From: a bacterium
GTDB lineage: Bacteria > Patescibacteriota > Patescibacteriia > UBA1558 > UBA10009
Length of the DNA: 64,000 bases
Direction: 5' to 3'
NCBI GenBank assembly: GCA_018672055.1
Contig: JABHGM010000001.1
Coordinates: 8,884 to 72,883 of the forward strand
The notes under the pieces were generated by a model, which did not search any database, was not told where the DNA came from, and saw only the letters and a list, made by a program, of their open reading frames with translations. Shown piece by piece: positions 380 to 63,933 of this stretch. Each line of letters opens with the position of its first letter. Positions within the stretch are counted from its first letter, which is position 1. Position numbers and translations under genes: made by a program.

Positions 380-1036
380 TTATTCTTGAATATCATCTTG
401 AGAATCATTTTCTAAAGAAACTAAAGGTTCAACTAAACCCTCTACTAAACTTGGTAGTTCTCCCCAATTTCCAATTTTCTGACCATTTAGGAAAAAAGTA
501 GGTGTGCTATTCAAACCAAGTCTATATACTTCATCTAAATCTTCTTCAATTACATACTTTTTAGTATGCGTGGACATACAATCATTCCAAATTTCAACAT
601 CTAAATCTAAAACTCCAGCATAACTTTCTAAATCAGAATAAGTTAAATCATCCTGATATGAAAATAACATATCATGATATCCCCAAAAATCACCTTGATC
701 ATGAGCGCATAAAGCTGCTTCTGCTGCTTTATATGCATACTTATGAATTGAAGTTAAAGGAAAATTATGATATTCCAATTTAACTTTATCGGGATATTTA
801 TCCATTATTGATTCAAGAACACTTTGTGCTGAACGACAAGCTGGACACTGGAAATCAGAATACTCAACTATTACTACACTAGCCTCAGGATTTCCTTTAT
901 ATGGACGCTCAGTAGTAATTTCTGAATACTCGGCAGTTTCTCTATTTAAATACCAGGATCCAAGTAATATTATAACTATGGCAATTATTATCCACCAATA
1001 TTTTTTATTCATATATTTAATAGTTAATATAGTCAC
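380..1036 (-). CDS. Membrane-anchored DsbA/thioredoxin-fold thiol:disulfide oxidoreductase
   Basis: N-terminal TM helix, CxxC active site (FQCPACRS), and 'TPTFFLNG' typical of the DsbA/thioredoxin fold. Confidence 0.75.
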   Translation of the reverse strand: MTILTIKYMNKKYWWIIIAIVIILLGSWYLNRETAEYSEITTERPYKGNPEASVVIVEYSDFQCPACRSAQSVLESIMDKYPDKVKLEYHNFPLTSIHKYAYKAAEAALCAHDQGDFWGYHDMLFSYQDDLTYSDLESYAGVLDLDVEIWNDCMSTHTKKYVIEEDLDEVYRLGLNSTPTFFLNGQKIGNWGELPSLVEGLVEPLVSLENDSQDDIQE

Positions 1037-1769
1037 TGGTAATTAAACTTTGATTTTCATACAAAGCATCTGTATATTCCCAAAACATATCTTGCTCACC
1101 AGCACATTCAGCAGATTCAGAAGCACCTCTAGCATATGGATGTAATTGGTCTAGAGGATAATGCTTATAGACCCAAACAACTTGATCACCGTAGTCTTCA
1201 ATAATACGTTTTAGAGTAGGATGAGCTCTGGCACAATAAGGACATTGAAAATCACTAAATTCAACTAATTTAACTTGTGCATCTAAGTTACCTAAATAGT
1301 TATCATCTTTAGTAATTTCTTTAACATTAGAATAACCAGAAGTTGGTAAATCAACACCTTCAATATTTACTTCTTGACCTGCTAAAATACTATCAATTAT
1401 TTGTGTAAAAACTTCATAAGGATAAGCACCTCTAACTAAGTATTCATTAACATAAACTCCAGGGGTTCCTGTTACGCCCGCAGCAGAACCTTCTTGAAAT
1501 TCAGCATTTACCTTTTCAACATATTTATCACTATCTAAACATTCTTTAAAATCCTTCATATCTAAATCCAGCTTATAAGCTAAAGAATTTTCATTATATT
1601 CTGTCTTATCACCAAGTGGCAAAGAAAAACCAGAGCCACTACCAGATAAAGTAATTAAAAAACCAATAGTTCCAACTATTAGTACGCCACCTACTAAACC
1701 TAGAATAAAAGATGATTTAGCAGAAATTAGGTCAAAAAAACCTTTCTTTTTCTTATTTTCATTAAACAT
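1017..1769 (-). CDS. Membrane-anchored DsbA/thioredoxin-fold thiol:disulfide oxidoreductase (paralog)
   Basis: N-terminal TM, CxxC motif (FQCPYCARAHP), 'TPGVYVN' motif. Overlaps the downstream paralog by 20 nt. Confidence 0.75.
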   Translation of the reverse strand: MFNENKKKKGFFDLISAKSSFILGLVGGVLIVGTIGFLITLSGSGSGFSLPLGDKTEYNENSLAYKLDLDMKDFKECLDSDKYVEKVNAEFQEGSAAGVTGTPGVYVNEYLVRGAYPYEVFTQIIDSILAGQEVNIEGVDLPTSGYSNVKEITKDDNYLGNLDAQVKLVEFSDFQCPYCARAHPTLKRIIEDYGDQVVWVYKHYPLDQLHPYARGASESAECAGEQDMFWEYTDALYENQSLITSDYINY

Positions 1770-8961: not shown

Positions 8962-11900
8962 TGTTATATACTTGTTTAACTTGTAAATTAGTTAAAGCAT
9001 AATTAAATATTTTTACTTCATCTATTTGACCCGTATAAAAGTTACCCGGGCTACCACCAGTACCATTTGTTCCAGCACCTATCATTAACGGATCAGAAAT
9101 ATCTATATCACCATAGCCAGTAATATCTGTTGGACTATTAGCATCTTCAATGCCATCAATGTATAATCTTAGATCATTGCCATCACGTACTCCAACAATA
9201 TGATGCCACAGACCATCATTACCAGATGTATCGCTTATAACAGCTTTTGCGGTAGTATTATCATCAATAGAAACTGCAAATTTACTATTTGTGTCTAATA
9301 ATATAGTATAACTCTTAGCGTTAGTACTATATGATCCATTCTGAACAATATCTTGAATTCCAGCTGTGCTTGTTTTAAACCAAGCGCTAACTGTGCCATC
9401 TCCACTACCCCAATCATGAGTAGATTTATCACCCATACTTAGATAATCATCAGTACCATCAAATTCCATAGAAGCATTTATTTTACCGGTAGCGCCATCA
9501 TTCCAAGCGCCAGAAGTAGCACAAGTACCAGTTGCTGTGTTAGTACCACCAGTACCAATTATTAAACTACCATTATTACCATTATATCCTCCATTACTGT
9601 TAGGTGCCCAATCGTAAATAGTACTACCAGAACATTCATCAAATTTCCAATAACCAACAGAGGCGCCTCTATTAAACGAATAAGCTACTTGAGCTGGAGT
9701 ACGAGCGTAATCATATAATCTAACTTCATCTATTGAACCATTAAAATAATTACCTCTTCTGCCAATTTCTAAATCAACGGCTGTATTTGGAACAGAAAAT
9801 CTTTGAGTATCTGAACTAGGCGAAGCTGTAGATAAAGCACCATCTAAATATGCATAAATAGTTGTACCATCCCATGTCATCACATAATAATGCCACTCAC
9901 CAGTACTTGGCTTACCGAAAGAAACATAATCATTAGAAGGTGTCTCTGCTTCATCATCTAACTCACCACGAATATAATTATCACTATATATCCAAATAGC
10001 ATATCCATCAGTATCCCAACCAGCGCTAGCACCTTTACCAACAATATGCGGATATTGACCACTATTATAACTATCTATCTTTGCCCAAACAGCAACTGTA
10101 CCAGTTGTAGTTAAATCTAAGGCTGCATTATCACTAACTGATATTTCATCATTACCATCAAATAACATACAAGAACCTTTAATGCAGCTAGAAGCTCCTT
10201 GCCAAGTACCATTTGTAATTGTTCCTGTATTATTATTATTACTAGTATCGTATGCACTAGAACCAGTTCTTTCATCCAACTTATATTCTGCAACTGGCGG
10301 ATCACAAGTAGCAGTGTCTCCAGGAATACAATACATTACAGATGCAGAACTTGAAGCAACACCTGTTGTTTCTTGTCCTGATGCTCCTAATACTAAAGAT
10401 GATCCTTTATTATAATCTATTAATATTTCATCTTCAGTTAAAGCCGAACCATACAACTTAAATTCATCAATTGTACCACTGAGCTGGTAAGCATCTAAAG
10501 AATGCCTATTACCAAATGTAAAATTAGTCCATGTCTCTGATACTGAAGTCATATCAACATCTGTATCAATAGATGATGGTGTTTGAGCAATGCCATCGAT
10601 ATAAAGAGTTAATGAGTTATCACCATCTCTAGATAAAGCTATATAATGCCAATTACCATCTAGCTCTGTAATAGTATAAAGATAATCTTTGTATAAAGTT
10701 GAACCGCTAACTAAAGCTGCATGAATTACAGTCGCTGAAGACGAATAAATTACTGCTCCATCATCATTACTAGTTCTAGTATCAAAAATATATGCTTGAT
10801 TATCACTTGTTCTAAACCAAGTAGATGCGGTCCATCTATTTAAACTAGTAAAGCCAGAAAGGCTTCCTGTAACATGCCCATCTCCATCAAAATCAAGACC
10901 TCTGCTAAACTTACCATTATTCGTTGAAGTAGCGTTAGTTATAGTCCCATCATTATCCCCATAACCATAATCATAAGCAGTAGAACCATAACCTTCGTCA
11001 AATTTCCAGTAACCAAATTGTGAAGCAATTGGAGAACCTCCTGCTGGATGTCCAGCATTCATATCTTCTATTACTTGTTTAGGAGTACGAGCGTAGTTAT
11101 ATATACGTACATCATCAATAATACCATTAAAATAATCTTGAACTGGGCCATTACAACTAGAACCACTTTTTTGAGCACCAACATATACTGGCAAACTACT
11201 ATAACTAGCTCCACTAGCAATCTCATTAGAAAGTGTTAAACTTTGCAAACTTCCATTTAAATATAATTTAGTACCTCCAGATATACCCCACTCTTTTACC
11301 CATTCTACATGATACCATTCACTATTAGTTAATACATCTCCACTCGTATAATGAGATGAATAAGCAGTATCACCATCCGAATATAATGCAAAATATAAAT
11401 CATTAGCGTAAGCATATATATTAAAATGAGCATCATTATTACATCCATTTCTTCTAGATAAAACAACTTGTTTTGTAGCATATGAATCAGCCTTAATCCA
11501 AAAACTGAAACTCTGTTTTCTAGTAGGTAAAATACTAAATAAAGTATCATCAGAAGAAATTAAACCATATTGATCAGTCCCATTAAAACTTAAAGCTTGT
11601 CCAAATTTACCGCTAGTCCAAGTAGGTGAATTATACAAGGTAACATTTTTTTGATTAGTTGATCTATCATACGCAGTACTACCACTGCCTTCATCCATTT
11701 TAATATGGGCTATAGGCCCAGGAGCCCAGTTGTATAAGTCACGTACTTCACGACTAGATAAAGATCTGTTATATACTCTAACTTCATCAATATTACCATC
11801 AAATTCATAACCAGCAGCTATTCGTCCTATTTCTAATGATCTACCACTAGCATTATTAACAGCAATAGACCCTATATAAGTACTAGCTTTTTCCTCTCCA

Positions 11901-34840: not shown

Positions 34841-34908
34841 TAAATTGAGTGATTTAAAAAGAAATAAAAAAATAAACTAGTAACAACTAATTTATTTTAA
34901 TAAATATA

Positions 34909-37338
34909 TTATTCAACAATAGTTGAAGCCATAGCTTCACGCCAAACAGGTAATCCCCCAGCCACATTGTCCATGCCAGGAGGTGTATTAACTATAACTC
35001 TACCATCATATATTATTATTTCAGCAGGTTCATTTTCCTCAATATAGTTTCTTTGTAATAAAATTTCATGAGCCATTACTAAACCACTTATTGTTAACTG
35101 TCTAGTATTAGAAGTATCATCACCTGTATAAAATTTACCTTTTAATCCAGAACCATTATCTAAAACTATAAAATTACCAACTATATTAGATACTGAAGGC
35201 GAAATAGTTACATTACCACCTTTTATTATCCAAGTAAGTGAAGCTAAATTTTCAATTTGTGAAGCAACCGAAGCTTCTTCATAAAACATATCTGAATTAA
35301 TTACTAAATCACCGTTTATTATAACTGTACCAGCTCCAGATGAATTAGTACCACGCGCATTATAAAAGGTTAATGGATTATCTATAGTATAGGTTGTTTG
35401 TCCTGTAAAATTATATACCTTATTACCCAACGTAGTATAACCAGACAAAGCATTATCAACATCATCTGAAGTAAAATCAACTTGATCATAACTATTAGCT
35501 ATTCTATTAAAATTAATTAATCCAGGTATAGTCCAATACTGATTACTAACTGTAGGTAAATCAAAATCAGCATATCCTGATTCTGAACAACCACTTTCAG
35601 TACTAAAATTAACAATATCACCTCCTATACCAGTTCTAATACAATAGCTAGCATTAAACCTAGTGTCAGGAGCTCCAAAAGAACCAGAACTACCTAAACC
35701 GCTCTTACCATAAACTAATCCATATTTAGACTCAAGCCATGGAGAACTTAAGTTACCATAAAATTTTAACCAACCAAGTCCCCTGTCTGCTGTACCATCA
35801 TTAAAACCATTCCAAGCTTCACCAGTTAATGATCCAGCACCATCTAAACTAGTACAATGATAAGGATTCTGACACATAGATAGCCAACCATCATCAGCAC
35901 CAAAAACGATTACATGACCCCAACCAGTTAATTCATAATTCTGACTATCATAAACAATAGGGACCGAACCGCTTGGCGGATTAATATATCCTTCATCTAC
36001 ACAAGTTGAACCAAAACAAATCCAACCAATATTACTATCCCAGGCCCAGCCATAAATACTATTACCATCTTTAGTTAAACCGTAATCAGGCGGACATAGG
36101 CTAAAATATGTACCATAGTAAATATTATCACAATTTAATGAAGCCCAGCCATAATTATAGCTCCAAGCCCAGCCATAGATACCACTTGGTAAATCACCCG
36201 AATTAACTGTTGCCGAAAAATCATCAGTTGCATTTAAAGTGTCTCGTACCCATAGTTTAGCAATTTGCGTACTAGTAGAACTATAATTAAATGTTTGAGT
36301 ATAAGCAGCGGGAGTCCAATCTATCTCCCACGGCTCACCACTATTATCAAAATCCCAACGGTATTCTAATTCATTCCTAGTATCTTCATAATCTGAAGAA
36401 CAAGCTCCGTTAAAAGTAAATAATTGTTCAGTATCATCAGAATTTAAGGGATCTACAGAAAAACATGCTTGAGGAGCATAGTTCTCTTGCCAATCTATAC
36501 GTAATTGAAAAACATGAGGTGACAAAGAAGTGTCTGTAGTCGACATCTGAACTTTCCAATATAATTTATCATCACTTGTATTAAAAACAATATTTACAGG
36601 ACTAGGAACATCCCCTGCTCCAAAGGTTAACCATTCACCAAGTCCAGGACCATACCAAGTACTACCATCATTAGAAAATTGATATCTTATGGTTTCACCT
36701 AAATCATCATGAACAGGTTGAACAGTTATTTCAGTAATAATACTATTAGTTTCTAACACTAAAATATCATCAGAAGTTATTTCACCAGATGTTTGATAAA
36801 CACCACCAACATCAGATAATCTTAAATGTGCTAAAGTATCATCCCAAACCATATTTGAGGCAGAGCCAAGATCATCTCTATCAGTAAAATCTTCTAAATA
36901 ATAATGAGCTAATGGATTATTTATTCTATGACTTAAAGCTAGAGTAGCTGTATAATATTCACTATACTCATCAAGACCATGAACAGAACGAGTCCTAAAT
37001 AAAAGAGTAGGCGCATATGGATGTGAGGTTGACCAATAATAATGTCTATTAAATGGAGATGAAGAAGTATAAAAAGCATCAATATCATTCCAAGTATCTC
37101 CTCCATTATTTGAATATTCTATTTCAAAATCAGTGAAATTAAGAGGTTTCCCAATTACTGTAAATTCAATAAATGAATCATATGGATCATCAGAACCACC
37201 GTTTTGCCAAATATCATCACCTCCTACAAAAGAAACAATTGGTGCAGTAATTGCTTTAACAGGTAACTGAAATACAAAAAAACTGCTTATTATCAATAAT
37301 AAGCAAGTTAAAAAAAGTATTTTTTTATTAAATTTCAC
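34909..37338 (-). CDS. Secreted 809-aa protein with repeated aromatic 'GWAW..N.GW' motifs
   Basis: Signal peptide (MKFNKKILFLTCLLLIISSFFVFQLPVKA). Repeats IYGWAWSYNYGWASLNC / IYGWAWDSNIGWICFG / TGWGHVIVFGADDGWLSM / GEAWNGF..GLGWLKF. Confidence 0.7.
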   Translation of the reverse strand: MKFNKKILFLTCLLLIISSFFVFQLPVKAITAPIVSFVGGDDIWQNGGSDDPYDSFIEFTVIGKPLNFTDFEIEYSNNGGDTWNDIDAFYTSSSPFNRHYYWSTSHPYAPTLLFRTRSVHGLDEYSEYYTATLALSHRINNPLAHYYLEDFTDRDDLGSASNMVWDDTLAHLRLSDVGGVYQTSGEITSDDILVLETNSIITEITVQPVHDDLGETIRYQFSNDGSTWYGPGLGEWLTFGAGDVPSPVNIVFNTSDDKLYWKVQMSTTDTSLSPHVFQLRIDWQENYAPQACFSVDPLNSDDTEQLFTFNGACSSDYEDTRNELEYRWDFDNSGEPWEIDWTPAAYTQTFNYSSTSTQIAKLWVRDTLNATDDFSATVNSGDLPSGIYGWAWSYNYGWASLNCDNIYYGTYFSLCPPDYGLTKDGNSIYGWAWDSNIGWICFGSTCVDEGYINPPSGSVPIVYDSQNYELTGWGHVIVFGADDGWLSMCQNPYHCTSLDGAGSLTGEAWNGFNDGTADRGLGWLKFYGNLSSPWLESKYGLVYGKSGLGSSGSFGAPDTRFNASYCIRTGIGGDIVNFSTESGCSESGYADFDLPTVSNQYWTIPGLINFNRIANSYDQVDFTSDDVDNALSGYTTLGNKVYNFTGQTTYTIDNPLTFYNARGTNSSGAGTVIINGDLVINSDMFYEEASVASQIENLASLTWIIKGGNVTISPSVSNIVGNFIVLDNGSGLKGKFYTGDDTSNTRQLTISGLVMAHEILLQRNYIEENEPAEIIIYDGRVIVNTPPGMDNVAGGLPVWREAMASTIVE

Positions 37339-37352
37339 TTATCTATTATAAA

Positions 37353-38207
37353 TTATAAAGTTATAATATTTTCTACATCACCAAGTAATTGTAATATAGC
37401 ATTATTTACATTAGTTCGGATAACATCTAAATCACTTTGATAACTCTGTAAAGTACTAAGAGAAACATTAGAACTTAAATCTAAACGAGTAATAGCTGTT
37501 AACTGAGTATCAATCTCTATAATATAAGCATCAAAAGAAGATTGTTCTGATTCCATATTACTAATACTACCATCTAAACTTCCTTTTAAAGTCTTGTCAT
37601 CATCTAAGTATATTACATTACATTCACTGGTACACCATACATCATTAGGATCATCACATTCTTCACTCTTATCAACTATTGAATCACCACAAACAGTTTT
37701 AGGATCTCCTTTAGCAGCGTAAGCAATAGGAATTAAACTTAAACTATTCTGATAACTTGAAGCTCTTGTATGACCAATAACATAATCAAAAGTTTCATTA
37801 ATTAAAGTGTATGAATCTTGTATATTACTAACTATTTGATTAGCATCATAATGATAATTAGTAGATTGAATTAGAGCAACATGCGTAGTAGTAACATCAG
37901 TACTATTAATTAAATCAAATAAAGCTGATTCGCTAGTTGAATTACTAATAGCAGTAAGTAATGGAGTTAATTGATTATCTTGATAGGCTTGCCAATCAGC
38001 AATTAAATCATCTTGGATCTGAGTATTAATATTATCATAACTATTAATTGTTGAATTAATAGCAGTATTTGTAGAATCAATCTTATTTTGAACTCTATCA
38101 GAGTACAAAGTTTTACACTCTGTTAAATTAACACAAGCTGCTTTAGAAGAGCTAGTTACTAAAATTAGAGCTATGAAGATAAAGGATAAGAATATTATTT
38201 TTTTCAT
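37353..38207 (-). CDS. Secreted protein with a Myxococcus-type cysteine-rich repeat
   Basis: Signal peptide. 'CGDSIVDKSEECDDPNDVWCTSECNV' matches the CG[DN]G.V[DE]..EECDDGN...C..C cysteine-rich repeat pattern. Confidence 0.65.
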   Translation of the reverse strand: MKKIIFLSFIFIALILVTSSSKAACVNLTECKTLYSDRVQNKIDSTNTAINSTINSYDNINTQIQDDLIADWQAYQDNQLTPLLTAISNSTSESALFDLINSTDVTTTHVALIQSTNYHYDANQIVSNIQDSYTLINETFDYVIGHTRASSYQNSLSLIPIAYAAKGDPKTVCGDSIVDKSEECDDPNDVWCTSECNVIYLDDDKTLKGSLDGSISNMESEQSSFDAYIIEIDTQLTAITRLDLSSNVSLSTLQSYQSDLDVIRTNVNNAILQLLGDVENIITL

Positions 38208-38223
38208 ATGTTTTAAATTAAAA

Positions 38224-38472
38224 TTAATTATGCACTACCTTAGCTCTAAGCTCAACTATCTTTTTTTGTAATTCGACTTTATTTATTTCATCACCAGATC
38301 TCATATCACGATCTACTACCACTGAGTCTAAATGTGATAAATCAGCTCCAGGACCAAAATATTTTTTATACAAATCCCCTGGCCAGAAGAATAAGCCAAT
38401 TAATATCAAAATAATAATCACAACTACTATTAAGATAATAACTGAACTCTTATTATTAGTTACTTGTTCCAT
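38224..38472 (-). CDS. Small single-pass membrane protein
   Basis: 82 aa; TM segment SVIILIVVVIIILILIGLFFW; no recognisable domain. Confidence 0.5.
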   Translation of the reverse strand: MEQVTNNKSSVIILIVVVIIILILIGLFFWPGDLYKKYFGPGADLSHLDSVVVDRDMRSGDEINKVELQKKIVELRAKVVHN

Positions 38473-38501
38473 ATATTTATATATTTAATATTATAAATTT
38501 A

Positions 38502-39977
38502 TTAAGGAAATTCTGGGAAAGTACAATCCACTCTTTCAAGATAGGAACCACTATAATCATTATCCCAGTTATAACTACCATCGTGCCATACTCTAGTTCC
38601 AGCTTGATAAGATCCTTGAACTAAATTACTACACCCAGATGCACTATACATTTGAGCAATTTCTGGCATTGAAGTATCATGTAATACTGATCTAAGGCCA
38701 CTCCAAGCACTACCTGTTGAATCTGCCCAAAAACTATCTGTAGCACATCTATAAACACTATTGCCTTGAGATACCCAACCAGCATCACAAGTAAAAAATG
38801 CATCTCCTAAAGTACTAGAATCACTATTAGGAATACAACTACCATCGTCTACATTAGCATTAGGATTATAATTTTCAGCACCAGAGATTGTACAACCTTC
38901 AACAACAGCGCCTAATTGAATTGGAATCCAACCAGTGCCAATACATAAATTTAATATTTGATTACTATAGCTTAATGTTCCTGCATTAGTAGCATCGCAA
39001 GTAGCTTCAGCACCTATCTTAACTCCACCATTTACAGCAAGAGCAACGCTTGGATTAGAATCACCAATTCCTACTTTACCATCATGAGTTATAATTAACC
39101 TATCCTCTAAAGTTGTATTACCTGTTTCTGTTGTTTGAAAAACAATATTTAATGGATTTTTATTATTACTAGAACTATGATAAGTAGGTGCTACTGTTTT
39201 TATAACCGCACCAATGCCTCCGCTATCAGGGTCTCGAGAATTAAAATTTATAACATGAACAGTATTACCACTACTTATACCACTTACATCTGTAAGTAAT
39301 TCTATAGATGCTGTATCTAAAACTACCTGCCTTATAGTTAACTTAGTATTACCACCAGCTGGATTGGAATAACCAATAATAACATTATCAGAAAATGAAG
39401 TATTATTATCAAATCTAGCAGTTAAACCATTAAAATCCATTATTCCATTAAATACTCCATAACCGTCTACAACTAAATCGTCACCAATTTTTACTATACT
39501 CTGCCCTCCATTTGAAGAAACATCTAAAATATATTCAGGTACCTTGCCAATACCTACATTACCAGCTGCGTCTATTATAAACTTACTAGAACTATTATTT
39601 TGTAAGAGCATTAAATTACCTTGAGATGCAGCATCAATATTTCCATAAATTAAATTCTCGCCTGTTTCTACTTCTAAACTTGCGCTACCCATCATTAACA
39701 TAGTTTGAATCCCTATATTACCAGTATTAAAATTCTGTATATCTCCTACCATAGAGCCCTGCCAAATACCTAAACCACCTTTTACTGAATTTTCTAAAAC
39801 ATTATAATTAACAACTTCATCTGCTGTAGTACCATCTGCTGATGGCAATCCAACAATTGAATAACCTTGAGTATTAAGCCTATTCCCAAGATCAACATCT
39901 TTTGATTCGACTCCTGATGTAAATATAATAAGCATTACTAATGATATTAAGATACTAAATATTAATTTTGTTTTCAT
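38502..39977 (-). CDS. Secreted/membrane-anchored protein with tail-fibre-like 'NVGIG...P...L.V.G' motifs and a Cys-rich C-terminus
   Basis: N-terminal signal/anchor. Motifs AAGNVGIGKVPEYILDVSSNGG and DGKVGIGDSNPSVALAVNGG resemble repeats common in phage tail-fibre and fibre-chaperone proteins. 10 Cys in the C-terminal third. Confidence 0.65.
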   Translation of the reverse strand: MKTKLIFSILISLVMLIIFTSGVESKDVDLGNRLNTQGYSIVGLPSADGTTADEVVNYNVLENSVKGGLGIWQGSMVGDIQNFNTGNIGIQTMLMMGSASLEVETGENLIYGNIDAASQGNLMLLQNNSSSKFIIDAAGNVGIGKVPEYILDVSSNGGQSIVKIGDDLVVDGYGVFNGIMDFNGLTARFDNNTSFSDNVIIGYSNPAGGNTKLTIRQVVLDTASIELLTDVSGISSGNTVHVINFNSRDPDSGGIGAVIKTVAPTYHSSSNNKNPLNIVFQTTETGNTTLEDRLIITHDGKVGIGDSNPSVALAVNGGVKIGAEATCDATNAGTLSYSNQILNLCIGTGWIPIQLGAVVEGCTISGAENYNPNANVDDGSCIPNSDSSTLGDAFFTCDAGWVSQGNSVYRCATDSFWADSTGSAWSGLRSVLHDTSMPEIAQMYSASGCSNLVQGSYQAGTRVWHDGSYNWDNDYSGSYLERVDCTFPEFP

Positions 39978-40016
39978 AGAATTGTAATAGTTAAATTTTT
40001 AAATAATTATACGTAT

Positions 40017-40022
40017 ATTATA
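40017..40022 (-). promoter_or_regulatory. Candidate -10 (TATAAT, minus strand) for the 38502..39977 gene in the divergent intergenic region
   Basis: Reverse complement gives ttttca-17nt-tataat, ~32 nt upstream of the ATG at 39977. Confidence 0.3.
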
Positions 40023-40139
40023 CAATATTTTTAAACATTTGAAAATTGTATATAACTCCATATTTCTTTTCTACATGTTATTACCTAAATAATAGCTAAT
40101 ATAAGCAATAAGATGCTAAAAAAGGTAAATAACACCCCT

Positions 40140-40168
40140 TGACAATATTGACAAAATGGTGTAGAATG
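40140..40168 (+). promoter_or_regulatory. Consensus sigma70-type promoter (TTGACA-17-TAGAAT)
   Basis: ttgaca atattgacaaaatggtg tagaat with an exact 17-bp spacer, ~75 nt upstream of the ATG at 40247. Confidence 0.65.
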
Positions 40169-40246
40169 ATATGTTTAAAGTGGATAAAAGTATCCAAATA
40201 AACGTTCTTAAATAATTAAATAAACACTTAAAACAGGGAGATTAAA

Positions 40247-41884
40247 ATGAAAAAATTCTTTTTACTCTTAACATTAATGCTCACATTAATGCTCTACCCT
40301 GTTTTAGGACAGGGTGAATGGTCATACGCTGCTTCATTACCAGATGGAGTTAATATGTCTATAAAACTATTCATTGAAGATGAAAAACTAGTAGTTACTC
40401 TAAGTGGCATTCCTATTACAGGAAATACCATGTCAACACATATGCAAGTATGCTATATAGATGAGGATATCTGTGTAAAAACAGGTGATCTGCCAGACAC
40501 ATTAGCAAGTTTTGCTGCTATTGATCTTAAAAATGGTAATCATGAACTTATGCTTGTTGGTGGTGTTGATCCAGATCTAATTCCTAGAGACGAAGCATAT
40601 ATTATTAATTACCTAACAGGTGAATGGCGTGAAACAGGTTCTATGCAAATAGGAAGAAGGAACTTTGATGGTAGAGTATTATCTGATGGCAAAGTAGTGG
40701 TAGGTTTTGGTTTTGATTCAAATGGTGGTAGAACTTATGAAATATGGGATCCTGAAACTGAAGAATTCTTTTTCTTAGGTGAAGCTGATTGTCAAAAACA
40801 AATCTACAAAATGATAACGATTAATGGCTCAATTTATGCAGTTGGTGATGATGAAAAGATACTTGTTTTCAATGAAGAAACTTACTTCTGGGATTTGGTC
40901 GCTGAATTTGATTTTGGCTGGGGTTCCTTTGCTATATCAGCTACACTAGATGATAAATTATTAATAAGTGCTGGTAATCAATATAATCCATTTGTTGAAT
41001 ATACTGAAATTGCAGCTATTGTTGATCCATTAACTGGTGAAGTTACTATGATTGATTCAGTGAATTATACTGGTGTACATTCTGCTCAATTCTGTGCTGA
41101 TAACGGGGTATGCTATAAACCCGGTGGATTTAATGTTTACAATGGTTTTGATATTAATACCGTTGAATCATATAAAGATAGCACTTGGACTATACTTGAA
41201 CCTATGCCAATTGATTATGCTAATCCATTTGTTGCAAAAATGCTTGATGGTAGATATTTTGTAACTGGTGATAATACACAATCAAATGGTGCAAACCTAA
41301 TATTCTCATGGAATTCAGAACCGGCTATAAGCTATTTTCAATTCTCACCAGATCCTCCTAGAGGTGATACGGTAGAAATTCAAGCTTATGATCCTGATGG
41401 TGATAATATAAGAGTATGTTTGTCAATAGCTTCTGCAGATTCATTAATATGTTCTACTGGGGGATATGAACCATCTGGTTCAACATTCATATTTACCAAT
41501 GTCATCCATGAATGGGGATATTTCGATGTAATAGTTTATGACGAATGGTCTGAAAATGGTACTCATAATTCTTCTGTTACAGTTCAACTAGTATTACTTT
41601 CAAATAATGTTACTGCGCCAACTAAATTCAAGCTCAATCAGAATTATCCTAATCCATTCAACCCTACAACTATTATTAGCTATGAGCTAGACATTTCCAG
41701 TAATGTGCAACTAATCATCTACGATCTTAGTGGAAGAGAAGTTGCCAATTTGGTAAATACTTACCAATTACCTAGTGAATATACTATAGAGTGGAATGCT
41801 ACAGATCTTTCAAGTGGCACCTATTTCTATAAACTTATCACTGATAATAGAACTCTCTCGAAAAAAATGGTTTTACTTAAATAA
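40247..41884 (+). CDS. Secreted Kelch/beta-propeller-like protein with a T9SS-type (Por) C-terminal sorting domain
   Basis: Signal peptide MKKFFLLLTLMLTLMLYPVLG. The C-terminal ~80 aa, 'NYPNPFNPTTIISYELDISSNVQLIIYDLSGREVANLVN...EWNATDLSSGTYFYKLITDNRTLSKKMVLLK', match the Por secretion tail pattern (NYPNPFNP...I.Y.L......V.L.IYD..GR.V..L......G.......A..L.SGVYFY.L......KKM.LLK). Confidence 0.85.
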   Translation: MKKFFLLLTLMLTLMLYPVLGQGEWSYAASLPDGVNMSIKLFIEDEKLVVTLSGIPITGNTMSTHMQVCYIDEDICVKTGDLPDTLASFAAIDLKNGNHELMLVGGVDPDLIPRDEAYIINYLTGEWRETGSMQIGRRNFDGRVLSDGKVVVGFGFDSNGGRTYEIWDPETEEFFFLGEADCQKQIYKMITINGSIYAVGDDEKILVFNEETYFWDLVAEFDFGWGSFAISATLDDKLLISAGNQYNPFVEYTEIAAIVDPLTGEVTMIDSVNYTGVHSAQFCADNGVCYKPGGFNVYNGFDINTVESYKDSTWTILEPMPIDYANPFVAKMLDGRYFVTGDNTQSNGANLIFSWNSEPAISYFQFSPDPPRGDTVEIQAYDPDGDNIRVCLSIASADSLICSTGGYEPSGSTFIFTNVIHEWGYFDVIVYDEWSENGTHNSSVTVQLVLLSNNVTAPTKFKLNQNYPNPFNPTTIISYELDISSNVQLIIYDLSGREVANLVNTYQLPSEYTIEWNATDLSSGTYFYKLITDNRTLSKKMVLLK

Positions 41885-41910
41885 ACTATTTAACAAATTT
41901 TCGGGCTAAG

Positions 41911-41949
41911 AGGTTCCTGGTCATATATGACAGGAACCTTCTTTTTTTA
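41911..41949 (+). terminator. Rho-independent terminator
   Basis: aggttcctg-gtcatatatga-caggaacct hairpin followed by tcttttttta. Confidence 0.7.
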
Positions 41950-41996
41950 TCTTAAAAAACATTAGTATAACTAATGCTTTATTTTTTTACTCTAAT

Positions 41997-42989
41997 TTAT
42001 CTAATTTTTAATCCAATATTTCTATCTTCAACATCCGATAAATTTGTATTAATTTCTGGCCAATCAAATCTAGGGGCTACTAATCTGTATGATACCTTTA
42101 TATCACTATTACTATATATAATTAATTGATTACTATCCGGATTTAATTCATACCAGACATTTGCCCTGCCCTCAGGAGTTAAAGCAACTATTAAATCATT
42201 CCAATCTTTATCCAAAACTATGATCTGTTTAAATAACCAAAGGTCTGAACCTTTTTCCAAATTATCAAAATCTATTACAAAACTATATATTCCATTTGAA
42301 TGATTATTTAACTCAACCTTACCCATTGTTTCTTCTTTAATACCTGTTGTTGAATGACCATAGGTTGAATATGATACATCGTCAATCCAATATACCGGAT
42401 CAATAGTGGCAGCAGTTAACTTGGTAACAGTTAGCTCACCAGTTACAGAAGCATCTCCAGTTACTTGTAATCTATTATCGCCTACAACTGGCGCTGCACC
42501 AATAGCGACATTCATACCAACTTCATTATAAGTAATACCATTAGTATCAGACTGCCAAAGACCTCCTATTTCAGACCATGATGATATACAATCGTTTTCA
42601 AAACAGAAAGCCTTATAATCCCCCTCGGATCTAACCTTTCCTACGAACTGCCCAGCATAACCATTTGGATTTGAAGTCTGACCATAAATTCCTGCCTTGC
42701 CCGTATAAGAATGAATACCTATAATAGCTCCACTATTATCTTCATCTACAGTTGATGCCTGTATTCTCCCGTTGGTTATTGTCAGATCACCATTCTTTAC
42801 CTGTGGAATAATACTTACATCCAAAGGTTCTGGCCTGTTCTCAAAAGGAGCAACTGCTGTTGGGGCTTCCCAAGCAGAATAAGTAACTACACCAACTAAA
42901 CCAAATAAAAAAACAAAATAAATAATAAGTTTTAATTTGTTGGCTCTTAACTTTTTAATTAAATTCATATTTTGACTAGTTTCATACAT
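41997..42989 (-). CDS. Membrane-anchored secreted protein with a tail-fibre-like 'NVAIG..P....L.V.G' motif
   Basis: N-terminal TM (LKLIIYFVFLFGLVGVVTYSAW). 'GMNVAIGAAPVVGDNRLQVTGDASVTG' resembles the motif seen in 38502..39977. Confidence 0.6.
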   Translation of the reverse strand: MYETSQNMNLIKKLRANKLKLIIYFVFLFGLVGVVTYSAWEAPTAVAPFENRPEPLDVSIIPQVKNGDLTITNGRIQASTVDEDNSGAIIGIHSYTGKAGIYGQTSNPNGYAGQFVGKVRSEGDYKAFCFENDCISSWSEIGGLWQSDTNGITYNEVGMNVAIGAAPVVGDNRLQVTGDASVTGELTVTKLTAATIDPVYWIDDVSYSTYGHSTTGIKEETMGKVELNNHSNGIYSFVIDFDNLEKGSDLWLFKQIIVLDKDWNDLIVALTPEGRANVWYELNPDSNQLIIYSNSDIKVSYRLVAPRFDWPEINTNLSDVEDRNIGLKIR

Positions 42990-43000
42990 AATTGTATAAT
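42972..43000 (+). promoter_or_regulatory. Near-consensus sigma70-type promoter (TTGACT-17-TATAAT) for lemA-htpX
   Basis: ttgact agtttcatacataattg tataat, ~45 nt upstream of the lemA ATG. Overlaps the 5' end of the divergent minus-strand gene. Confidence 0.6.
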
Positions 43001-60877: not shown

Positions 60878-61849
60878 TTATAATGTAGTAATTGGCCTTG
60901 ACTGTAAAATATATAATTTATTTTTAGAATATGCCCATTCAACATCTTGAGGACATTTATAATGCTTCTCTATTTTTTTAATAACTTCAGCTAGTTCAAT
61001 AATCTCTTTACCTGTTAACTTTTGTTTTTCTTGAATATTCTTAGCAACACTTTTTAAAACACTCCCCCCACCTTTCTTCATAATAATCTGTTTTTCTTGC
61101 TTTACAATATTTATATCTAAAATAGTTCCTTCTTTTTTATGCACGATATATGAATCAGGCGTAATAATTCCAGAAACAATAGCTTCACCTAACCCAAATC
61201 CTGCTTCAATAATCATTTGATTATAATCTTCAGTAACAGGGTGAACACTAAAAGCTACACCAGACACTTCACTATCAATCATTTTCTGAATTACCACAGC
61301 TACACTAACACTAACCTTATGTAACTTCTTTTCAAATCTGTAGAATATAGCGCGGGGAGTAAATAACGAAGCCCAACACTTTTTAACATTAGTAATTAAA
61401 TTCTTTTCATCGATATACAAGAAAGTATCAAGTTCACCAGCCCAAGATGCAATAGATGAGTCTTCAGCAGTAGCTGAAGATCTAACAGCAACCCATTTAC
61501 ACTTTAATTTCTTAAATTCTTTGTGTATTGCTTCTTCAATAGGCTTAGGCACATTAGAATCCATGATCATGTCATTGATTACATTAGATGCCTTATCAAT
61601 ACTATTAACATCTTGATAGTTTACCTTGTTAAGCTCAGCTTCTATCAAGACATTTAAGTCTCCTTGACCAGGACCAGCTGGTGGCGGAGTATCATTTAAA
61701 AAACTATCAAAAGCAGATGCTAAGACTACATAACCAGGTGGTACAGAGAGCTTAGCTTGAGTCATTTCACCCAAAGAAGCACCCTTACCCCCAGCAATGC
61801 CTACATCTTTCTTTTTTAGCTTTGTAAAGGGTAAAACAAAATTATTCAT
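60878..61849 (-). CDS. PEP synthase/PPDK N-terminal nucleotide-binding domain (PPDK_N) stand-alone protein
   Basis: GIAGGKGASLGEM...SVPPGYVV, VAVRSSATAEDS...WAGELDTFL, FTPRAIFYR, SGVAFSVHPVT, EAGFGLGEAIVSGIITPD, PQDVEWAYSKNKLYILQSRPITT. Confidence 0.8.
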   Translation of the reverse strand: MNNFVLPFTKLKKKDVGIAGGKGASLGEMTQAKLSVPPGYVVLASAFDSFLNDTPPPAGPGQGDLNVLIEAELNKVNYQDVNSIDKASNVINDMIMDSNVPKPIEEAIHKEFKKLKCKWVAVRSSATAEDSSIASWAGELDTFLYIDEKNLITNVKKCWASLFTPRAIFYRFEKKLHKVSVSVAVVIQKMIDSEVSGVAFSVHPVTEDYNQMIIEAGFGLGEAIVSGIITPDSYIVHKKEGTILDINIVKQEKQIIMKKGGGSVLKSVAKNIQEKQKLTGKEIIELAEVIKKIEKHYKCPQDVEWAYSKNKLYILQSRPITTL

Positions 61850-62092
61850 AAGTTGAATTCTAATTAATTATAACATAAATTAGGGGTATCTAACAATAAT
61901 TATTTTCTTATACAATTTATCTTAAAATAATATAAATAAACCTTATTATACTTGACATTTTATTCAATATATGCTATACTTATATATTGAATGAACATTA
62001 ACATAGCTTTCAATCTGTAGTCTATTTTGGCTAAGATTAGAGAATAATTCAATAAAAACAAACAAACCGTCCAATAGGGCAAGGAGTTAAAC

Positions 62093-62752
62093 GTGTTACA
62101 AAAAGAAAATATAGCAATATCAAGAATCATTGACCTAATACCACACGGAACAAAATTGGTAAAATTTCTAGGCAGACATGCTAAATCAGTTCAGAAAGGC
62201 ACTCAAGAAACTAGAACGCTTTCAGAGAAAGGCGTGGATCTCTGTAAAGATGTTTCATATTTCTACGGTAGATTATTTCTTCACCTGCGTGATAGTTATG
62301 GGGAATTTGAATACTGCTCATCAGAATGGCCCAGATCATTACTGACAACATTCCTGACAACCAAAGAAACTCAGATTGTAATGCTGAATAATATGACTAT
62401 TCCTGTCGGTGCAAGCCTGAAAAATCTCAATGATGGAGAATGGTTCAGAGAACGGAAAGCAAAAAAAATGACTGTTGTTGAAATGATTCAAGAATTCTTG
62501 AAAAATAGAGATGTGCTTGGTGGAAAACCTTTTGATGAATATGAACAAGCATACATCTCTTGGGTTATGGAAGACATTTATTCTAAAGCTGGATTTTTTC
62601 ATGAAATCGGCTGCACTTTGGCTGCCATTAAACTGGGAATTAATCCTGAAGAAGCTGGACTAAATGAGTGCCAAGGCTATCTGTTCTGCCTTGATAATTC
62701 CGCTAAAGTATTGTCCGTAATTAAAGTTGCTCCTCCAGCAACACTCGAATAG
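62093..62752 (+). CDS. Hypothetical protein; compositionally GC-richer than its neighbours, SD plus GTG start
   Basis: AAGGAG 7 nt upstream of the GTG start. Visibly higher G+C than flanking genes. Has its own terminator. No recognised domain. Confidence 0.55.
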   Translation: MLQKENIAISRIIDLIPHGTKLVKFLGRHAKSVQKGTQETRTLSEKGVDLCKDVSYFYGRLFLHLRDSYGEFEYCSSEWPRSLLTTFLTTKETQIVMLNNMTIPVGASLKNLNDGEWFRERKAKKMTVVEMIQEFLKNRDVLGGKPFDEYEQAYISWVMEDIYSKAGFFHEIGCTLAAIKLGINPEEAGLNECQGYLFCLDNSAKVLSVIKVAPPATLE

Positions 62753-62796
62753 TACTCTCAATCACCTCTAGGTGAAAGAAAGTCATACACTAAAAA

Positions 62797-62829
62797 AGGT
62801 CACTTTGTAAAAAGTGGCCTTTTTCTTTT
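62797..62829. terminator. Bidirectional Rho-independent terminator between convergent genes
   Basis: aggtcacttt-gtaa-aaagtggcct stem (one G-U pair), flanked by an A-run upstream and ttttctttt downstream. Confidence 0.65.
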
Positions 62830-62841
62830 ACTTGAAATATA

Positions 62842-63933
62842 TTATTTTCTTTTTATAACATTCATTATTCCATTAGTACCATCTACCTCTACAATATCAC
62901 CGTCTTTTAATATCTTGGTAGCACTTTTAGCGCCAATAATACATGGTATACCTGCTTCACGTGCCAGCGTTACTGGATGCGATGTAATACCTGGTCCTCC
63001 ATCACAGACCATGCCTACTGATAATGAAATAATTGTTGAAAATACTGGAGTAGCTTGTAAGGTGGCAATAATGTCACCTTTTTTTACTTTATGAAAACTA
63101 TCTGGATTAATTACTATTTTAACAGGTCCTTTTGCTTTGCCTGGGGAAACCGGTTGACCTGTTAAATATTTAGCCTTCATATCAATTTTAACGTACTTCT
63201 TAAATATATCCTCAGCTTTTTTTTCAATAATAACCTTTGCTCCTGTATGGCTACACTGCCAGCATGATAATTTAATTCTTTCAGATAATTCTCTAGAATA
63301 ATCCTTTTTACCTACCAAAGCTTTTCTAAATTCATTCATCTTAAAATGTCTTATTTGATTAACAGTTAAAGCTAAACGTCTAGCTGATTCATTTAAAACT
63401 GGATCAAAATAGTAAAGAGATAATGATACTATAGTTTTTCTAAGCTCTTTATAATACATACCTTCTCTCATGGTCTGAAATAATCTAGCAGTGTCTTTAT
63501 CAATATCTAATTTTTTTATAATTCTCTTTTGATCTGAATCTAGCTTTTTTTCTTCATTTATTAGCTTACTTAACTTATTATTAGGATTACCTGTTAAATG
63601 CTTTTTAAAACGTAATATAAAGTCTTCGAATGTAAGTACTGGATCTTCGTAATCACGAGTTAGCCAAAAATAATTCTTTTCATGAGCTTTAATTAATTTA
63701 TATAGCTCTTTATCTTTTTTTATACCTTCTAAATTATTAGATTTAATTAATTTAACCCATTTATCTTTTTTAGATATTATTACTAATAATTTCAAAGCAG
63801 CTACGAGTTCTTTACGATTAACCATAGCTGAGTATTCAGTAATTAATACATTTAAATATTTACCTGCTTTTTGTTTATCACTTACTTTATTGAATATATA
63901 ATTCCTTAGATATTCAAATAAATAATTTTCCAT
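62842..63933 (-). CDS. PEP-utilising enzyme 'mobile' (phosphohistidine swivel) domain protein; reading frame stays open upstream to the window edge
   Basis: C-terminal 'GQPVSPGKAKGPVKIV...GDIIATLQATPVFSTIISLSVGMVCDGGPGITSHPVTLAREAGIPCIIG' matches the PEP-utilisers swivel domain (GG..SHAAI.ARE.GIP). In-frame sequence upstream of Met (63934-64000) has no stop, so the true N-terminus may lie outside the window. Confidence 0.7.
   Translation of the reverse strand: MENYLFEYLRNYIFNKVSDKQKAGKYLNVLITEYSAMVNRKELVAALKLLVIISKKDKWVKLIKSNNLEGIKKDKELYKLIKAHEKNYFWLTRDYEDPVLTFEDFILRFKKHLTGNPNNKLSKLINEEKKLDSDQKRIIKKLDIDKDTARLFQTMREGMYYKELRKTIVSLSLYYFDPVLNESARRLALTVNQIRHFKMNEFRKALVGKKDYSRELSERIKLSCWQCSHTGAKVIIEKKAEDIFKKYVKIDMKAKYLTGQPVSPGKAKGPVKIVINPDSFHKVKKGDIIATLQATPVFSTIISLSVGMVCDGGPGITSHPVTLAREAGIPCIIGAKSATKILKDGDIVEVDGTNGIMNVIKRK

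Follow-up and report, generated by a model that had tools for sequence, protein, structure and literature searches.

The window analysed here is a 64,000-nucleotide stretch of bacterial DNA. It carries at positions 40247-41884 of the forward strand a 545-amino acid (aa) open reading frame (ORF), whose product runs from a Sec-type signal peptide through a seven-bladed Kelch propeller and an immunoglobulin-like (Ig-like) domain to a type IX secretion system (T9SS) C-terminal sorting domain (CTD) of type A. The span that was followed up, 40140-41949, additionally holds a promoter and a terminator. Such T9SS sorting tails are treated as a sign of a working T9SS in bacteria of the Fibrobacterota-Chlorobiota-Bacteroidota (FCB) superphylum. 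Taking the history of the gene, the export of its product, and the likely partner together, the best explanation, in which we place moderate confidence, is that the target is a horizontally acquired FCB-type T9SS cargo gene, linked to Marinimicrobia and resident in a bacterium of the Patescibacteria, or candidate phyla radiation (CPR). The protein itself is already in the NCBI database, where MBT4495972.1 is an exact match titled 'T9SS type A sorting domain-containing protein [bacterium]'. The label derived from the tail is thus known. A canonical T9SS cargo gene that is maintained without the machine and takes part in ongoing inter-phylum exchange appears to be new. Our literature searches found no paper linking T9SS tails or CTDs to CPR/Patescibacteria, or CPR to Marinimicrobia, and nothing relevant on T9SS in Marinimicrobia.

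The sorting tail and the protein that carries it

The coding sequence is divided as follows:

40247-41884, + strand: coding sequence of 545 aa with Kelch propeller, Ig-like domain and T9SS type-A CTD (ORF list, profiles, AlphaFold2)
40247-40312, + strand: putative Sec-type signal peptide, aa 1-22, MKKFFLLLTLMLTLMLYPVLG followed by QGEW, without a lipobox cysteine (read by eye)
40313-41311, + strand: seven-bladed Kelch-type beta-propeller, aa 23-355 (AlphaFold2, Foldseek, Kelch_1)
41312-41611, + strand: Ig-like middle domain, aa 356-455 (AlphaFold2 strands at aa 360-449; invariant columns)
41612-41881, + strand: T9SS type-A CTD, aa 456-545, with the profile match at aa 467-542 (TIGR04183, PF18962, AlphaFold2)

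The original prediction had read the C-terminus as a T9SS type-A sorting domain, and the profile searches bore this out. The tail scored 47.6 bits with TIGR04183 against a cut-off of 23 (E 1.2e-12, model positions 2-70 of 72) and 40.8 bits with PF18962 (Por_Secre_tail) against a cut-off of 27 (E 2.7e-10, model positions 2-74 of 75). It therefore exceeds both curated cut-offs over the full model length, which assigns it to the T9SS type-A CTDs. The match occupies the extreme C-terminus (aa 467-542 of 545) of a protein with a Sec signal peptide recognizable by eye. The tail is 50-60% identical to the CTDs of proteins from Ignavibacteria, Melioribacter, and Bacteroidota. The tail positions that are invariant in the family, namely the NYPNP.N motif, G496, L502, G524, and Y526, are the same as those invariant in the CTDs of FCB bacteria.

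The structural models are compatible with this assignment. In the AlphaFold2 model of the whole protein, the C-terminus forms a beta-sandwich at aa 462-543, and the tail modelled separately also folded into a beta-sandwich with a predicted local distance difference test score (pLDDT) of 86. The separate model matched the T9SS substrate CTDs of translocon complexes (8glk_D, 8gl8_D, and 8gl6_D), PorZ, and the mirolase CTD, and the PDB identifiers matched include 5m11 and 8qb1_A. These matches were weak, with E-values of 4e-3 to 2e-2, and unrelated Ig-like domains were interspersed among them. Searching the PDB by sequence with the tail gave spurious antibody matches only.

The AlphaFold2 model of the whole protein used 39 homologues and reached a mean pLDDT of 85, with the propeller mostly at 85-97 and composed of about 28 strands. 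The putative signal peptide, which is kept in the alignment of orthologues, coincides with a helix at aa 2-16 that leads into a linker of low confidence; a Sec signal peptide thus appears probable, as judged by eye and from this helix. The Kelch_1 profile was narrowly above its cut-off (24.2 bits against 20.1), and Kelch_6 remained under its own (24.4 bits against 25.3). Foldseek searches of the PDB with the whole model retrieved galactose oxidase and other AA5 oxidases together with Kelch domains (E 1e-18 to 1e-15). The propeller aligned with KLHL, KEAP1, and designed Kelch proteins at target-normalised TM-scores of 0.65-0.69 (E about 1e-16). Profile match and predicted fold together place the protein among the Kelch-repeat beta-propellers, and the modelled fold is clearly that of a Kelch-type propeller, in agreement with the Kelch-like secreted protein first proposed for this gene. 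The middle domain is marked by the motifs FSWN, SDPDxD, and HNSS, which are invariant in the family alignment.

The family itself is narrow. Among 1.84 billion representatives, only two clusters at the 50% identity level belong to it, with a handful of sequences that are 46-55% identical to one another. A profile search of the representative library returned mostly giant multi-Kelch proteins and showed only how narrow the family is, and the N-terminal family alignment found no relative among the GTDB representatives, where the family is either absent or cut off. Outside the family, the next relatives are Kelch proteins with a CTD at 23-28% identity, of which the named ones belong to Ignavibacteria and Melioribacter. 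The closest outgroups, P0034 and P0179, are co-linear with the target through the middle domain and also bear the tail, which argues that the whole architecture was inherited from an FCB-type gene. Another relative, P0033 (L007, 10001-12145), consists of a serine recombinase (Resolvase and Recombinase domains) that continues in frame into the C-terminal ~360 residues of P0029, a family member. It adjoins three proteins with Fib_succ_major domains and may represent an integrative element inserted in the gene.

Within the family, all five members from the CPR clade and the copy from Marinimicrobia lie above the TIGR04183 cut-off (23.3-47.6 bits), and the window copy has the highest score. The CTD, at 54% mean pairwise identity, exceeds the propeller (48%) and the middle domain (46%). 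The tail of the window copy has stayed canonical although its gene has a host-like composition, and for this reason the tail does not seem to be decaying but is probably under purifying selection within the CPR lineage. The GC content at third codon positions (GC3) in the tail is 0.30 (codons 456-535), roughly double the values for the remainder of the gene (0.14-0.17) and for the window on average (0.15). P0031, the orthologue from another CPR species, has a raised tail GC3 as well. Codon constraint or more recent recombination in the tail could account for it.

The gene is accompanied by its own putative expression signals:

40139-40167, + strand: sigma-70-type promoter with TTGACA at 40139-40144, a 17-nt spacer and TAGAAT at 40162-40167 (11/12 match, conserved)
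40181-40196, + strand: palindrome or hairpin in the 5' untranslated region (5'UTR), TGGATA-N4-TATCCA (conserved arms)
40235-40240, + strand: Shine-Dalgarno sequence AGGGAG, 6 nt 5' of the ATG (sequence; conserved across orthologues)
41908-41949, + strand: intrinsic-terminator-like hairpin and T-run between the convergent target gene and g330 (folding)

The consensus promoter that had been pointed out is present, with a second, overlapping TTGACA at 40148, but such matches are as frequent in shuffled sequences as in this AT-rich stretch (15 observed, 14.5 expected). Since a single match is unremarkable in AT-rich DNA, support for the promoter comes from its conservation: TTGACA-17-TA[AG]AAT is retained upstream of the orthologues in two other species (L006, and L036/L037/L033). 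Transcription of the target from its own sigma-70-type promoter is therefore plausible, with the conservation observed and the activity presumed. The palindrome in the 5'UTR has invariant arms and a variable centre in the window, in L006 (~9932-9947), in L036 (~164-179), and in the Marinimicrobia copy. It formed a 6-bp stem in all three UTRs that were folded, at energies that were not significant, and may serve as an operator or form a small hairpin in the RNA. The strong terminator held up on folding of 41895-41955, which gave a 15-pair hairpin at 41908-41943 followed by the T-run (-17.4 kcal/mol, z = -3.5); a simple terminator scan had missed it because of a bulge.

Insertion into a Patescibacteria locus and exchange with Marinimicrobia

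The host is a Patescibacteria/CPR bacterium, judging from its nearest ClpC relatives and its gene content. Among the GTDB species representatives, the nearest ClpC loci belong to a metagenome-assembled genome (MAG) with an evidently wrong title (86% identity) and to Parcubacteria group GW2011_GWF2_45_11 (72%), followed by MAGs of the Patescibacteria group (67-68%) and Komeilibacteria (57%). Six of the GTDB-representative MAGs (L008, L013, L016, L018, L022, and L023) are titled 'uncultured Gammaproteobacteria bacterium'. At least L008 (ClpC 86%) and L023 (68%) share the flanking gene order with the CPR genome, so that these titles look wrong; in the other four, ClpC is 44-51% identical.

The window encodes a type IV pilus operon (PilB, PilT, PilC, PilM, four pilins, and a prepilin peptidase) in which no secretin was matched by Pfam, a cluster of PrgI, TraC-like, VirB4-like, and T4SS_pilin genes, DsbA-like proteins, and three DUF2341-LamG giants. 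These are the CPR-like surroundings that the original prediction had recognized. A PrgI/VirB4-type cluster and a proposed lack of an outer membrane have been described for CPR bacteria (10.1101/2025.01.22.634366). As had also been remarked, the vicinity of the gene contains no T9SS machinery: SprA/Sov, PorV, PorK/L/M/N, and PorU were absent from the Pfam matches in the 64-kb window and 4.6 kb beyond, which amounts to ~70 kb of a genome of roughly 0.96 Mb. The Pfam matches of the window genes likewise included no outer-membrane families.

One account of the tail would be that the host has a T9SS of its own elsewhere in the genome and exports the protein and attaches it to the surface in the usual way. 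The fully canonical tail is what one would expect from such cargo, and the stretches inspected make up only ~7% of the genome. Nevertheless, the host falls within the Patescibacteria, its pilus operon is without a secretin match, and its type IV secretion system (T4SS) cluster belongs to the monoderm type that is characteristic of CPR. According to PMC12398890, T9SS is restricted to the FCB superphylum. In addition, no T9SS family appeared in any stretch read, and neither the window nor any of the CPR loci retrieved contains a second CTD-bearing ORF. We consider this account very improbable.

The locus indicates how the gene arrived. Its neighbours are:

38502-39977, - strand: left neighbour g491, a secreted protein without a family match, equivalent to the C-terminal portion of one large ORF found in more distant relatives (synteny)
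41997-42989, - strand: right neighbour g330, equivalent to the N-terminal portion of that one ORF in more distant relatives (synteny)

In L006, a contig of a related species (ClpC 90%), the orthologue P0031 is 48% identical to the target and lies between the same genes. The housekeeping neighbours of the two loci are 85-92% identical and the adjacent surface-protein genes 41-65%. The latter range covers g809, g284, g491, the target, and g330 (window ~34900-43000), which make up a rapidly evolving run of surface-protein genes next to the type IV pilus operon. Synonymous sites are saturated between the orthologues at this level of divergence. In the species represented by L008, L035, and L036, the orthologue occupies the same site on the downstream side, and the three closely related CPR species thus have the gene at one common locus. 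The relatives L023 and L009 (ClpC 68-72%) retain the synteny PilM-g809...LemA-M48-ClpC and lack the Kelch-CTD gene. There, one ORF of 845 or 1051 aa (L023, 5236-7773; L009, 182-3337) replaces g330 and g491, with an N-terminus that matches g330 and later parts that match g491 in the same order. Because the gene is present in the three close species and absent from the syntenic site in these relatives, synteny shows the target as an apparent insertion: the ancestor of a genus-level CPR clade would have received it in opposite orientation, inside a surface-protein gene or adjoining one. By eye, the single ORF of L023 also contains a Hint/intein-like stretch (CFSGETRISTPNG...VHN).

In its composition, the window copy resembles its host. 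GC is 0.339 and GC3 0.194, against window values of 0.308 +/- 0.033 and 0.152 +/- 0.037, and the codon usage is ordinary. With all three measures within about one standard deviation of the window genes, a signal of recent transfer was rejected for this copy; the compositional comparison that had been suggested for the gene thus left it looking host-like. Across the three CPR species, GC3 varies, from 0.194 in the window to 0.262 in P0031 and 0.378 in P0030.

P0030 is the orthologue in the sister species (ClpC 86%), and its GC3 compares with 0.18-0.30 in the CPR flank and 0.33-0.46 in adjoining Marinimicrobia genes. On contig L032, P0030 is joined to 7.4 kb of DNA with 37-46% GC, in which the AspRS is 100% identical to that of the MAG GCA_964409335.1 and 73% identical to proteins of Candidatus Marinimicrobia/Fidelibacterota. 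In contigs L039-L043, an almost identical gene, P0301, has its native place between the same AspRS and a bPH_2 gene. P0301 is flanked by exact 65-bp direct repeats (L039, 6026-6090 and 7943-8007), which duplicate the ribosome-binding site and the first eight codons of bPH_2. No terminal inverted repeats were found around the Marinimicrobia cassette, only the direct repeat. In a related Marinimicrobium (AspRS 79%), bPH_2 lies directly beside AspRS, which represents the empty site. The upstream repeat creates a 64-aa ORF with the bPH_2 start codons that overlaps the start of P0301 by 4 nt, an arrangement that suggests read-through expression of P0301 from the bPH_2 promoter.

P0030 and P0301 share 1501 bp with a single mismatch, from 76 bp 5' of the ATG through codon 475. 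The last 261 bp, corresponding to the C-terminal two-thirds of the tail, are 79% identical, and the two proteins differ nowhere but in the final 60 residues of the tail. The crossovers coincide with the two patches of highest conservation, namely the 5'UTR and the NQNYPNPFNP motif. The flanks of P0030 are of CPR type on either side. Upstream of P0030 (L033, L036, and L037), the end of a RodA/FtsW gene is followed by an IS481 transposase and then by the TTGACA promoter; downstream (L035, L036, and L008) are a g330-like gene, LemA, M48, and ClpC. The IS481-family transposase (L033, 599-1531) lies directly upstream of P0030, where the window has g491, g284, and g809, indicating a local rearrangement.

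All four combinations of flanks occur among the contigs. L032 and L035 are best understood as chimeric paths, because assemblers cross the 1.5-kb exact repeat. The ends of two independent MAG contigs each lie exactly 55 bases from one of the two fork points (L038 at 7769 and L008 at 9161), from which we infer that an assembly graph with k=55 branched there. At the level of nucleotide identity, these contigs show that both a CPR and a Marinimicrobia genome hold the gene, and that the 1.5-kb piece has moved between them very recently. Composition favours the direction from Marinimicrobia to CPR.

The chimeric paths raise the question of whether an FCB gene was mis-joined into a CPR contig by assembly or binning. 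L032 and L035 do join the Marinimicrobia upstream flank to the CPR downstream flank through the shared 1.5 kb, and they concern the sister-species allele. The window allele has identical CPR neighbours on both sides in each of the 24 contigs read, which come from several sources and reach 963 kb. Furthermore, the L006 orthologue lies between the same CPR genes, the promoter and 5'UTR are conserved across CPR species, and the composition is host-like. We give an artefact next to no credence.

The CPR host, the insertion, the FCB outgroups, and the 1.5-kb near-identity with the Marinimicrobia copy favour horizontal acquisition over descent within a T9SS lineage. The original prediction had offered two alternatives, namely an organism from a T9SS lineage or acquisition with an orphaned or repurposed CTD. 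The acquisition is supported by the insertion, the outgroups, and the near-identity, but the tail does not look like a decaying relic.

Possible roles of the tail

We propose the following scenario for the acquired gene. The gene would have entered the ancestor of the genus-level CPR clade beside the type IV pilus operon and then evolved as fast as its surface-protein neighbours, with every conserved CTD position retained, while the window copy drifted to a host-like codon composition; the tail would accordingly be selected rather than an orphaned relic. Transcribed from its own sigma-70-type promoter, the product would be exported by Sec across a single membrane and fold into the predicted seven-bladed Kelch propeller, Ig-like domain, and type-A CTD beta-sandwich. 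The tail would not be usable in cis as an outer-membrane translocation signal, because CPR bacteria presumably lack an outer membrane and the stretches read show no T9SS component. As a PorU-type sortase is not expected either, the tail would remain part of the mature protein. With no membrane or wall anchor, the product would be released or only loosely associated with the surface, presumably as a binding protein with the propeller as its binding module. The CPR clade may live in physical contact with Marinimicrobia, with the protein acting at that interface; the recent gene exchange in the sister species makes Marinimicrobia the best candidate partner.

Alternatively, the gene could be a passenger without a function in CPR that is brought in again and again with Marinimicrobia DNA, for instance when an epibiont is naturally transformed. 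Its tail would then look conserved because the copies are refreshed from a donor in which the tail is under T9SS selection. The recent 1.5-kb replacement in the sister species, with its Marinimicrobia-like GC3, fits this view, and GC3 values of 0.19, 0.26, and 0.38 in the three CPR species suggest different residence times. Moreover, mobile-element genes (an IS481 transposase and a serine recombinase) lie beside or are fused to family members. Against it, the most host-like copy, that of the window, combines the top TIGR04183 score with an intact ORF, a promoter, and a Shine-Dalgarno sequence. The identical protein recurs across many samples (58 index blocks), and the locus has persisted in three species with 85-92% identity between their housekeeping genes. 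We regard the passenger explanation as unlikely.

A further alternative assigns the tail a function in trans, in which the CTD, once the epibiont has exported the protein by Sec, would be recognized at the surface of a T9SS-bearing host by the PorV shuttle and the PorU/PorZ/PorQ attachment complex. These would dock the CPR protein on the outer surface of the host or perhaps even attach it covalently. Consistent with this idea, the CTD positions conserved in FCB bacteria are retained despite host-like drift elsewhere in the gene, and the exchange partner is an FCB bacterium with the same protein and a PorV2/PorQ-like gene two genes away from P0301. This gene scored below the cut-off (E 1e-10), and a search for its homologues gave three unnamed or hypothetical matches only, so that a T9SS is presumed for that Marinimicrobium. 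PMC12206443 describes all cultivated Patescibacteria as obligate episymbionts, which would suit such a lifestyle. Nevertheless, docking in trans is entirely inferential, host association itself is presumed, our literature searches gave no precedent, and the fold match does not separate a T9SS CTD from other Ig-like sandwiches. We find a function in trans unlikely as well. In its most specific form, the marine CPR clade would be a Marinimicrobia epibiont whose tail is captured by the PorV/PorU complex of the host, planting the protein on the host outer membrane, a proposal to which we likewise attach little probability. If true, the shared gene would be a host-range marker as well as part of the attachment mechanism.

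Several observations weigh against the acquisition scenario that we prefer. The signal peptide was called by eye. The absence of T9SS genes refers to ~70 kb of the genome, and that of the outer membrane is taken from the CPR literature, not from this genome. The higher conservation of the CTD is modest, and fold constraints or repeated re-import from Marinimicrobia could explain it. The direction of the recent exchange is read solely from composition. Neither genome has a flank that matches the outer 92 bp and 57 bp of the Marinimicrobia cassette, and a third donor or a mobile element may therefore have taken part. Furthermore, the exchange was seen in the sister species, not in the window's own species, and a working T9SS in Marinimicrobia is indicated only by the sub-threshold PorV2/PorQ-like neighbour and by the FCB literature.

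With these points considered, horizontal acquisition of an FCB-type cargo gene remains our preferred explanation. To our knowledge, the hosts of marine CPR bacteria are essentially unknown, and a 1.5-kb near-identical segment on CPR and Marinimicrobia chromosomes from the same samples provides a testable clue to host linkage. Because T9SS tails are taken as a marker of a working T9SS, a canonical tail maintained in a lineage presumably unable to use it means that annotations of the NCBI type can mislead about cell biology.

Other features of the window and comparison with known systems

Three further features of the window concern other ORFs. The ORF at 62093-62752 (+ strand) has the most deviant composition (GC 0.374, GC3 0.291, codon-usage distance 1.61); the public gene call at this position is a 119-aa gene on the opposite strand without a family match, and the ORF may be spurious or foreign. 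Two adjacent DsbA/Thioredoxin_4 ORFs lie at 380-1769 (- strand). The one at 1017-1769 contains the C-terminal half of the DSBA profile first and then the N-terminal half of Thioredoxin_4, as if tandem genes had been fused or frameshifted, and neither product, in the form listed for the window, is recorded as a called gene in the public collection. Finally, four paralogues of the PEP-utilizers mobile domain adjoin a PPDK_N gene (window 60878-63933 and 4.6 kb beyond; L005, 1-7768), which is an unusual array for a small genome.

Among known proteins, the target most resembles the T9SS type-A cargo of Ignavibacteria and Melioribacter, in which Kelch proteins with a CTD (for example P0044, P0047, and P0094, which is MROS_1509) have the same layout of signal peptide, propeller, and CTD. 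Like FCB cargo, its tail passes both profile models, is 50-60% identical, and shares the conserved positions; its predicted beta-sandwich is compatible with theirs. Unlike FCB cargo, it resides in a CPR genome in which no T9SS is apparent, and the cell presumably lacks an outer membrane. Its propeller is only 23-28% identical to those of the FCB Kelch-CTD proteins, and the extra Ig-like domain is common only to the uncharacterised outgroups P0034 and P0179.

Galactose oxidase/AA5 and GlxA-type radical copper oxidases (PDB 5c92, 1gof, and 4unm) were the best fold matches of the whole model (E ~1e-18 over ~510 columns) and share with the target a seven-bladed Kelch propeller followed by an Ig-like domain. 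With an identity of 12-16% and a root-mean-square deviation of ~13 A, this is a resemblance in fold only, and no GlxA or Glyoxal_oxid profile matched at E<=1, so that the target was not classified as a radical copper oxidase. The N-acetylneuraminate mutarotase NanM/YjhT was considered since some second-tier homologues bear this JGI label and PF24996. NanM identity was ruled out for the target, in which PF24996 reached 12.7 bits against a cut-off of 45 and TIGR03547 gave no match.

The acquired surface and host-interaction genes of Patescibacteria provide the closest parallel to the history of the gene, being likewise secreted or surface genes with their closest relatives in another phylum (10.1101/2025.01.22.634366). 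In that work, the MPF-FATA-type T4SS of Patescibacteria was proposed to derive from monoderm hosts. In contrast, the partner here is a diderm FCB bacterium, the acquired gene carries a sorting signal for a machine that the recipient lacks, and one exchange is nucleotide-identical.

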